From assembly GCF_022846255.1 (NCBI RefSeq), contig NZ_AP025682.1: a stretch of DNA of 64,000 bases; one strand, given 5' to 3'. Each line of letters opens with the position of its first letter. Position 1 is the first letter of the stretch. The position numbers were made by a program, and so were the translations under genes. This document shows positions 1 through 32,974 of this stretch, in pieces. The notes under the pieces were generated by a model. It had not been told where the DNA came from and did no database searches. It saw only the letters and a program-made list of their open reading frames with translations. Source of the stretch: Escherichia coli (lineage in GTDB: Bacteria; Pseudomonadota; Gammaproteobacteria; Enterobacterales; Enterobacteriaceae).

Positions 1-1341
1 TTCGTTAATTGCCGCTCGCTGACGAATCTCCGAAAGAAGATCATCCACCTGTGTTGCCACTGGCCGCACTTCGATAATCGGGTCGAGTAAGCCTGTTGGA
101 CGCACCACCTGATCCACCACATCGCCACCGGATTTTTCCAGCTCGTAATTACCCGGCGTCGCCGAAACATAGATGGTTTGCGGCGCTAATGCTTCGAACT
201 CTTCAAATTTCAGCGGACGGTTATCCAGCGCTGATGGCAGGCGGAAGCCGTACTCCACCAGTGTCTCTTTACGCGCCCGGTCACCGCGATACATGCCGCC
301 AATTTGTGGAATGGTGACGTGAGATTCATCGACCACCAGCAGCCCATCAGCAGGCAGGTAATCAAACAGCGTCGGCGGTGGCTCACCCGGTCCACGACCG
401 GAGAGGAAGCGCGAGTAGTTCTCAATCCCCGAACAGTAGCCTAGCTCGTTCATCATCTCCAGATCAAACTGGGTACGCTGGGTCAGCCGCTGCTCTTCCA
501 GCAGTTTGTTGTTTTCCAATAGCACTTTACGTCTGGCGGCCAGCTCTTCTTTGATCTCCTCCATCGCCTGGACGATGCGCTCGCGTGGCGTGACGTAGTG
601 CGTTTTCGGGTAGATGGTAAAACGTGGAATAGTGGAAACAATCTGCCCGGTCAGCGGGTCAAATAACGACAATCGTTCCACTTCCTCGTCAAACAGCTCC
701 ACGCGAAGTGCAATGTCATCCGATTCTGCCGGGAAGATATCAATCACCTCGCCACGAACACGGAAAGTACCACGCTGGAAGGCTTGATCATTACGAGCAT
801 ATTGCAGCTCCGCCAGTCGGCGCAGGATCGCGCGCTGATCGATAATCATACCGACCGTGAGATGGAGCATCATCTTGAGATATAAATCAGGATCGCCCAG
901 ACCATAAATCGCGGAAACAGACGCCACCACAACCACATCACGCCGCTCCAGCATCGCTTTGGTGGCGGACAAACGCATCTGTTCGATATGTTCGTTTACC
1001 GAGGCATCTTTCTCAATGAAGGTGTCGGAACTCGGTACATAGGCCTCCGGCTGATAGTAGTCGTAGTAGGAGACGAAATATTCCACCGCGTTTTCCGGGA
1101 AGAATTCTTTCATTTCGCCATACAGCTGGGCCGCCAGCGTTTTGTTGGGCGCAAGTACCATGGTTGGGCGCTGAAGGTCAGCAATGACATTGGCAATGGT
1201 GAAGGTTTTCCCGGAGCCAGTCACGCCAAGTAACGTCTGGTGCGCCAGGCCATCTTCCAGCCCCTCTTCGAGACGTCGAATCGCCTCCGGCTGATCGCCA
1301 GAAGGTTTAAAAGCGGAATTCAGTTTGAACGGTTTACTCAT
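1..1341 (-). CDS. uvrB: UvrB excinuclease ABC subunit B, N-terminal part (3' end lies beyond window start)
   Basis: Reverse translation from ATG at 1341 gives [28 protein letters not shown]...[10 protein letters not shown] (Walker A); reading frame runs off the window edge at [12 protein letters not shown]. Confidence 0.9.
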
Positions 1342-1433: not shown

Positions 1434-1737
1434 TTCATCACCATAATATTTCTGTTACAGCGTAAACTCCGCTGTCAATCATGAGCAAAATTTACTCTGC
1501 GGCGAGATAAAACTCCGGCCTTACCGGGTTATCCCCAAAGCAACGGCTTTTTTAACATTTGTCAAGATGATTGATGACAGTTTTATGGCAAGAGATGCCT
1601 GTTCAGTGACTGCCATTGCAATTATCTAACCTGTTAAAAAATAAAAGATATTTCTTTGAGCCGTCTTTAACGCCAATTCGCGTGCAAGCCGCGTATTCTC
1701 TCGCTTGCCTCGTGTTTTCTAACTCTAATACACATGG

Positions 1738-1760: not shown

Positions 1761-1919
1761 CTGTCTGCAGCCCCTATCCCCCGCCGCCTGGGCAATTCCC
1801 ACATTCACCGCATGATGCGGAGGTAAAATTTTTTTCGTGATTTTTTTAGAATTTAATTGGTTAAATTGCAGTCAATCGGAGACGCGATCTCGCTCACAAT
1901 TTAACCAAGCACAGGATGA

Positions 1920-2603
1920 CTACATTAAGGCAAGATTGATGTACTTTCCGGTTGCCGCATTTTCTGGATTTTCTGCAAGCCAGGGAATTTCGCCCAGCAG
2001 CGGCGCGGGAATCATGCGGGTGAGCGTGGTCATATATTCAGCGTGACGTTTTCCCGGAGGCGTGACATCGTTCGCCACCCACCCCGCCAGAGTCAGTCCG
2101 GCGTGTAGTATTGCCTGCGCAGTCAACATCGCGTGATTAATACAGCCGAGTTTCACGCCCACAACCAGTATCACTGGCAGTTGTTCCTGTGTTACCCAAT
2201 CCGCAAAAGTGAAAGTGTCAGAAAGCGGCGTAAACCAGCCGCCAGCACCTTCCACTAACACCCAGTCAGCCTGTTGTTCAAGCGCGCGTAATCCGGCGCT
2301 CATTACCGATGATTCTATCGGCCTGCCCTCTTGCGCGCTGATGATGTGCGGCGAGGTGGGTTCTGCGAAGGTGTAAGGATTTACCGTTGCGTAATCCAGC
2401 TGCAGGCTACTGTTGCGCTGTAACGCCAGCGCGTCACTATTACGTAAGCCTTTCAGGGTCTTTTCGCTGCCAGAGGCGACCGGTTTGTAACCTGCCGTCC
2501 GGTAGCCTGCTGCCTTTGCGGCTTGTAAAAGCGCGCAGCTGGCGACAGTTTTCCCCACTTCGGTATCCGTTCCGGTGACAAAATAACATTTACTCACGAG
2601 CAA
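1920..2603 (-). CDS. bioD: Dethiobiotin synthetase
   Basis: 227 aa ORF; P-loop-like GTDTEVGKT; last gene of bioBFCD gene order. Exact start uncertain (alternative GTG a few codons in). Confidence 0.9.
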
Positions 2604-32944: not shown

Positions 32945-32974
32945 AAAAAAGCGCCTTTAGGGCGCTTTTTTGCA
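32945..32974 (-). terminator. Rho-independent terminator at the 3' end of the tRNA operon (symmetric, could act bidirectionally)
   Basis: aaaaaagcgcc-tttag-ggcgctttttt: GC stem flanked by A/T runs on both sides. Confidence 0.75.

Follow-up and report, generated by a model that had tools for sequence, protein, structure and literature searches.

Eleven nucleotides past the stop codon of bioD, the last gene of the bio operon of Escherichia coli, the DNA contains a perfect inverted repeat, which raises the question of whether this repeat acts in the bio mRNA, in the DNA upstream of uvrB, or has no function of its own. We studied it within a 64-kb stretch of E. coli DNA (the window, analysed at its full length of 64,000 nucleotides and presented in reversed orientation). 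The repeat was noticed correctly in an initial annotation and is non-random, and its interpretation there was reasonable. We propose that it is a 3'-UTR hairpin of the bio mRNA, which may serve as an exonuclease barrier or a pause site and is not a canonical terminator, a tentative functional assignment to which we give a probability of roughly 40%. Elements of this kind are ordinary and the locus has been heavily studied; taken alone, the repeat matters little, as one more 3'-UTR hairpin in a well-studied region. It provides a worked example of a perfect repeat limited to one genus, in a lineage without a neighbouring gene that most relatives carry. Two by-products are more noteworthy than the repeat itself: a conserved, strictly spaced palindrome that lies upstream of DARS1, and the loss, in particular lineages, of that neighbour, an ABC ATPase gene.

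Position and composition of the repeat

Both flanking genes lie on the minus strand, with bioC, bioF and bioB following bioD in that order, and gene identities were confirmed against RefSeq-annotated E. coli records of identical or near-identical sequence. The bioD-uvrB spacer is 578 bp long (1342-1919) and carries no annotated feature in MG1655 or W3110; the older gene name ybhU, once used between bioD and uvrB, is absent from the current annotation of both strains. The features considered here are as follows.

1-1341, minus strand: uvrB
1408-1380: uvrB promoter P1, TTGGCA-17-TAAAAT, from the promoter scan
about 1416-1435: LexA box in the bioD-uvrB spacer
1737-1761, unstranded: inverted DnaA-box pair GTTATCCAC / GTGGATAAC, from the repeat search
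1823-1856, minus strand: A/T tract 3' of the hairpin, UUAAAUUCUAAAAAAAUCACGAAAAAAAUUUU, with a counterpart conserved in Enterobacteriaceae
1857-1868, minus strand: 3' arm of the hairpin in the bio mRNA, CAAUUUAACCAA (left arm on the plus strand)
1869-1896, minus strand: loop of 28 nt, whose outermost bases (1896/1869) add a thirteenth pair in RNA
1883-1898, minus strand: CRP-like palindrome TGTGAGCGAGATCGCG, TGTGA-N6-TCGCG, overlapping an arm by 2 nt, with GATC at 1886-1889
1897-1908, minus strand: 5' arm of the hairpin in the bio mRNA, UUGGUUAAAUUG (right arm on the plus strand)
1909-1922, minus strand: bioD stop codon TAG (1920-1922) and the 11-nt spacer after it (1909-1919), from the sequence and the end of the open reading frame
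1920-2603, minus strand: bioD

The P1 hexamers are the ones given previously for uvrB (PMC3946193). On the plus strand the repeat consists of TTGGTTAAATTG (1857-1868) and CAATTTAACCAA (1897-1908), two 12-nt arms that are 100% complementary and 28 nt apart; in MG1655 the arms are at 812,959-812,970 and 812,999-813,010. The initial annotation had described a perfect 12-bp complementarity between 1858-1869 and 1897-1908 with a 27-bp spacer. The complementarity and the right arm hold, while the left arm and the spacer length are corrected to the values above. Its distance of 11 bp from the bioD stop agrees with the open reading frame, which ends at 1920 including the stop codon.

Counting perfect inverted repeats with arms of 12 bp or more and spacers of 3-50 nt, we find seven in the window, where composition-preserving shuffles predict 0.27; repeats of this class are thus strongly non-random, at about 25-fold above chance. 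The repeat occurs at one place per genome in complete E. coli genomes, and in the 64-kb window just one other match to an arm is found at one mismatch. This single-copy status rules out a repeated palindrome of the REP/BIME or MITE type.

The six other repeats of the class are at 32958, 33818, 39597, 44002, 51770 and 63078. Those at 32958, 39597 and 51770 are short-loop, terminator-like hairpins; the latter two are flanked by runs of A and T and resemble bidirectional terminators, and the one at 32958 directly precedes an apparent tRNA-like sequence.

Folding, transcription and conservation in Escherichia

A folding-energy calculation, suggested along with the initial annotation, gave -19 kcal/mol (z = -2.4) for the RNA in the bio sense, with a stem of 13 pairs; the thirteenth forms because 1896 and 1869 pair as U.G in the window strain and as C-G in K-12. 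Folded within 251 nt of context, the RNA keeps the same stem in both its minimum-energy and its centroid structure. The antisense RNA gives z = -2.3 and the DNA z = -4.0, the latter favouring a role at the DNA level. The transcribed strand thus carries a stable hairpin immediately after the stop codon, as in a protective 3'-UTR element. Since the bio mRNA necessarily includes this sequence and the stem is thermodynamically favoured, we consider the formation of the hairpin in bio RNA very likely.

Long-read data from the SeqATU preprint place bioBFCD and uvrB in one transcription-unit cluster, which indicates that the region is transcribed in the bio sense with read-through past the hairpin. 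The repeat sits on the transcribed strand, 11 nt beyond the stop codon with which the operon's final gene ends. This placement, its fold energy, the persistence of the stem in the longer context and the read-through transcription all count in favour of a 3'-UTR role. Mapping of RNA 3' ends by Term-seq had also been suggested with the initial annotation; among the entries listed in the tables of Adams et al. 2021, there is no 3' end near bioD or at 812,9xx-813,4xx. We count this against a 3'-UTR role with little weight, since bio is under repression in rich medium.

Protective 3'-UTR stem-loops are those to which Rho-terminated or processed transcripts are trimmed back (Dar and Sorek 2018, PMC6061677). 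The bioD repeat is similar in being a stable stem-loop right after the last stop codon, with no U-tract and with a transcript that continues. It differs in that its stem is AU-rich, its loop is unusually long (26-28 nt), and it is known here from the sequence and a predicted fold. In our preferred reading, the repeat is transcribed within the bioBFCD mRNA as a 13-bp AU-rich stem-loop. Because some transcripts continue through DARS1 into uvrB, it would not be an efficient terminator. It might mark or protect bio 3' ends after downstream termination or after an endonucleolytic cut in the AU-rich tract; alternatively, it might slow RNA polymerase ahead of the DARS1/uvrBp3 region. Among the three options put forward in the initial annotation (an RNA stability or processing element, a protein-binding site and part of a small RNA), the first fits best, set against a lack of covariation and of a listed 3' end.

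With a 661-bp query over the bioD-uvrB spacer, matches at 95-100% identity were obtained in 5424 of 5426 complete E. coli genomes, in every case under bioD and uvrB annotations, and a 34-nt stretch containing the 3' arm was identical in 5306 of the 5424. A further comparison took in nine E. coli strains drawn from different lineages and six other Escherichia species or clades, E. albertii and E. whittamii among them. In all of these the arms are either unchanged or differ by one or two substitutions, the 5' arm is intact in the nine E. coli strains, and the most divergent E. coli variant retrieved has its changes just outside the arms. Variable columns across Escherichia number 3 of 12 in the 5' arm and 2 of 12 in the 3' arm (5 of 24 together); for the 11-nt spacer next to the arms plus the fast-evolving distal half of the loop (1869-1882), the figure is 20 of 25. 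The arms are conserved islands between fast-evolving stretches. In five of six comparisons they have diverged far less than the four-fold sites of bioD (P = 0.04 to 5e-5, the lineages not being independent). The near-universal presence in E. coli, the conservation of the arms and their low divergence relative to four-fold sites count in favour of a 3'-UTR role.

The 11-nt spacer itself has 10 of 11 columns variable across Escherichia and several variants inside E. coli, and in strain B95.deltaA it is rearranged. The final two codons of bioD also differ between strains (ALM in the window strain, ALL in K-12).

The covariation test comprised 169 cells, of which 98% were paired. No pair had changed on both sides, and the RNAalifold covariation term was only -0.29. 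Shuffle controls equalled the observed value, and covariation therefore gives the hairpin no support. Three changes (A24G, C58U and C30U) turn a pair into G.U, which preserves pairing in the bio-sense RNA alone, and three others (U27G, A60U and G29A) break a pair. Transitions in the stem preserve pairing in the bio-sense RNA alone in three of four cases, a 3-to-1 split that we regard as a hint towards the bio sense and that might reflect selection on the hairpin at the RNA level. We count the G.U-keeping transitions in favour of a 3'-UTR role, and the lack of any two-sided change together with the three pair-breaking substitutions against it. Because the arms are conserved without covariation, conservation alone cannot tell an RNA role from a DNA role.

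Homologous DNA in other genera

A scan for BioD in species representatives yielded 80 loci. Homologous DNA is recognisable in Citrobacter, Salmonella and Enterobacter, where it is not a repeat. The counterpart of the 5' arm in other genera is ATGGTGAAAATG or TTGGTTAAAATG; that of the 3' arm is of the GTTAGCTGA type in Citrobacter and TTAGCCAA in Salmonella, where it is non-complementary. Conservation, another check suggested at the outset, thus holds throughout the sampled Escherichia and ends there, so that the repeat is confined to this genus, and the alignments suggest that it arose in the ancestor of Escherichia. Relative to the outgroups, about eight substitutions (alignment by eye) fall on the Escherichia stem lineage, mostly in the 3' arm and all raising complementarity, which we count in favour of a 3'-UTR role. 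They would fit either selection for the hairpin or a single templated (strand-switch) event.

Most Enterobacteriaceae have bioD and uvrB about 1.4 kb apart because a gene for an ABC ATPase sits between bioD and DARS1. This gene encodes 221-238 amino acids and is convergent with bioD, its end lying at or overlapping the bioD stop (loci L011, L021, L024, L058, L070 and L072, among others). The best match of the product is UrtE, below the family cut-off, and we describe it as UrtE/LivF-like. Upstream of the gene we noted by eye a sigma-54-like promoter, TGGCA-N6-TTGCA, and NtrC-like sites; the gene is probably nitrogen-regulated. It is absent from Escherichia, Salmonella, Citrobacter koseri, C. 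amalonaticus and C. sedlakii, and Citrobacter sp. R56 (L016) has a remnant of the region in a 701-bp spacer. This distribution suggests that Escherichia and Salmonella lost the gene, in lineage-specific events. The hairpin would accordingly have arisen in an Escherichia ancestor belonging to a lineage without the convergent gene of most relatives. Salmonella, which also appears to have lost the gene, has a GC-rich 8-bp hairpin of its own 23 nt after bioD (z = -2.4 to -2.7), a parallel case that counts in favour of a 3'-UTR role. The Citrobacter species with the short form of the spacer show no significant structure after bioD (z = -0.5 to -1.5), which counts against it.

Three further ideas were rejected in the course of these comparisons. 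The translated arm had resembled the N-terminus of the ATPase, as if the repeat were a remnant of the ABC coding sequence; we reject this because in gene-bearing species the homologous DNA is located about 150-250 bp upstream of the ABC start. A GC hairpin at 1807-1819 was unsupported as a true, structurally conserved terminator over 75 species (mean z = -0.55). By eye, complementary stretches also seemed to flank the conserved block of the loop in several genera, as if a hairpin enclosed it in all of them; a test of real against cross-species pairings of the flanks in 43 species was negative (mean z = -0.1).

That negative result favours the view that the repeat has no function of its own: a quasi-palindrome would have been perfected in the Escherichia ancestor by a template-switch (strand-switch) mutation or by chance, and kept since then by the constraint on the region and the youth of the genus. 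The homologous DNA without a repeat in other genera and the absence of covariation point the same way, as does the finding that about a third to a half of the 12-column windows in the intergenic alignment match the conservation of the arms. In addition, comparison with the outgroups makes the 3' arm (bio sense) look rewritten and the 5' arm largely ancestral, a pattern that a single templated event would give. Both arms overlap blocks that are conserved, in different sequence and unpaired, in other genera, so their conservation need not stem from the hairpin. A repeat without function is nevertheless harder to reconcile with the arms as conserved islands far below neutral four-fold-site divergence, with its essential fixation in the 5424 E. 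coli genomes and with the excess of such repeats in the window. We regard this explanation as a serious one that is still somewhat unlikely.

DARS1, uvrB P3 and the remaining alternatives

The two DnaA boxes at 1737-1761 form the DARS1 core, inside the uvrBp3 promoter region (PMC6015884; PMC11317965). The pair is invariant across Escherichia and the DARS1 core is invariant in all sampled genera, whereas the repeat is specific to Escherichia. Having no DnaA box and being 96 bp from the pair, the repeat does not qualify as part of DARS1. Repeat and DARS1 share an intergenic region, and the repeat is contained in the fragment (-567 to -280) that Wurihan et al. used as a uvrBp3 reporter (PMC6015884).

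One alternative is an element at the DNA level, in which the arms and the loop would be parts of a conserved module on the upstream side of the DARS1 core and uvrB P3, forming a protein-binding or architectural site, and the RNA hairpin would be incidental. The coincidence of both arms with stretches conserved in other genera, described above, is in keeping with this. The loop also holds a block, of consensus TGTGA-N6-TC[T/G]CA and usually with GATC, that is found at a fixed 137-139 bp from the DnaA-box pair in 43 species (loci L011-L066), with or without a neighbouring ABC gene. An A/T tract occupies a fixed position in all genera (1823-1856 here, consensus CAAAAAnnAGCGATAAAAATTTTTT), about 75-95 bp upstream of the DARS1 DnaA boxes. 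A region flanking DARS1 is reported to stimulate it (PMC4245941).

The consensus of CRP sites is TGTGA-N6-TCACA, and GATC in the spacer is not required by CRP. The loop block resembles such sites in the window strain by its perfect left TGTGA, the AAAT before it and the 6-nt spacer, and in most genera by a right half of the form TCNCA. It differs in that the right half is TCGCG here, the left half in K-12 is TGCGA, and the spacer contains the conserved GATC. Matched by eye to this consensus rather than with a curated matrix, the block agrees at 8 of 10 pentamer positions in the window strain, 7 of 10 in K-12 and 9 of 10 in most other genera. This palindrome, a putative site conserved across genera, lends some support to the protein-binding option of the initial annotation.

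As side observations, two to four GATC sites are clustered around the block in Siccibacter, Kosakonia and the loci L019 and L050, and the A/T tract of Citrobacter and relatives has two GC(T)GATAA repeats, weakly DnaA-box-like, that are lost in E. coli.

Several observations speak against a DNA-level element. In most Escherichia and Citrobacter the block is weakened to TGCGA...TC[T/G]CG, and the form in most Escherichia is TGCGA...TCGCG. All substitutions seen in the arms break the DNA symmetry. With their centres 40 bp apart, the arms are a poor fit to a single dimeric regulator. In the literature we searched, neither CRP nor any other factor is reported to bind at the bioD-uvrB repeat, and the promoter table of Ishihama has no H-NS mark for the spacer. 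A 70-bp fragment that leaves the repeat outside is sufficient for full DARS1 activity in vitro (PMC6868365). On balance, we find an element at the DNA level unlikely.

Resemblances to other operators and motifs were discarded. The BirA operator and the PdhR box (AATTGGT...ACCAATT) have the wrong orientation or spacing. The lac operator half-site AATTGTGAGCG is missing its partner and is mutated in K-12. The H-NS high-affinity motif TGGTTAAATT matches at 9 of 10 positions, in a spacer with no H-NS mark in the table mentioned above.

A broader proposal combines these elements. The hairpin might be an Escherichia remodelling of an unrecognised module upstream of DARS1/uvrBp3, made up of the putative CRP-like GATC palindrome and the A/T tract at a fixed distance from the DnaA boxes; in Escherichia, read-through from bio and the hairpin would then couple transcription of the biotin operon to DnaA reactivation or to uvrB expression. 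We consider this combined proposal improbable. To our knowledge, DARS1 has so far been regarded as factor-independent; if the proposal were true, it would possess a conserved flank with a regulatory role, as DARS2 does in its IHF/Fis region. Were they functional, the spaced palindrome and the A/T tract would bear on the regulation of DnaA reactivation.

Returning to the transcript, the hairpin was correctly described from the start as something other than a canonical intrinsic terminator. It has neither the G+C-rich stem, nor the loop of about 3-10 nt, nor the U-tract of such terminators: UUAAAUUCUAAAAAAA comes directly after the stem in the bio direction, and the terminator scan does not call the hairpin. 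It is like the canonical terminators of the window (for example those at 32958, 39597 and 51770) in being a perfect inverted repeat at a gene end. It differs from them in having only 3 G-C pairs among 12, a 28-nt loop versus 3-8 nt, and an A-rich tail instead of a U-tract. If the stem were instead a weak non-canonical terminator of bio, or belonged to an antisense transcript or small RNA that is not annotated, this could draw on UUAAAUUCU after the stem (5 U in 9) and on a -10-like hexamer, TAGAAT, seen by eye on the plus strand (1847-1852). Both readings are very improbable, given that the U-rich tail is not conserved (Escherichia strain E69 has CCAAAUGCU), that the promoter scan finds no promoter-like site near the repeat on either strand, and that the transcript data described above point to read-through into uvrB and include no listed 3' end here. 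A search of Rfam 15 over 1200-2100 gave only matches to eukaryotic families at E above 8, none overlapping the repeat, and a described RNA family is rejected on this basis. The small-RNA option of the initial annotation is not borne out, there being no promoter-like site, terminator-like site or Rfam match at the repeat.

Other features occur between the repeat and uvrB. A small terminator-like hairpin, CCGGTAAGGCCGG followed by AGTTTTATCT (1515-1527, minus strand), lies between uvrB P3/DARS1 and P1/P2 and could limit bio or P3 read-through into uvrB. A genomic SELEX peak of the RpoS holoenzyme has been reported at 812,472 (U00096.2 coordinates) and placed between uvrB and ybhU, the latter on the opposite strand (PMC5493296); in these older coordinates it corresponds to about 1618 of the window. 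E. coli ZH063 (L004) carries a prophage, with a terminase large subunit gene and its neighbours, within the bioD-uvrB spacer; its junction, at about 1574, falls between DARS1 and the uvrB P1/P2 promoters.
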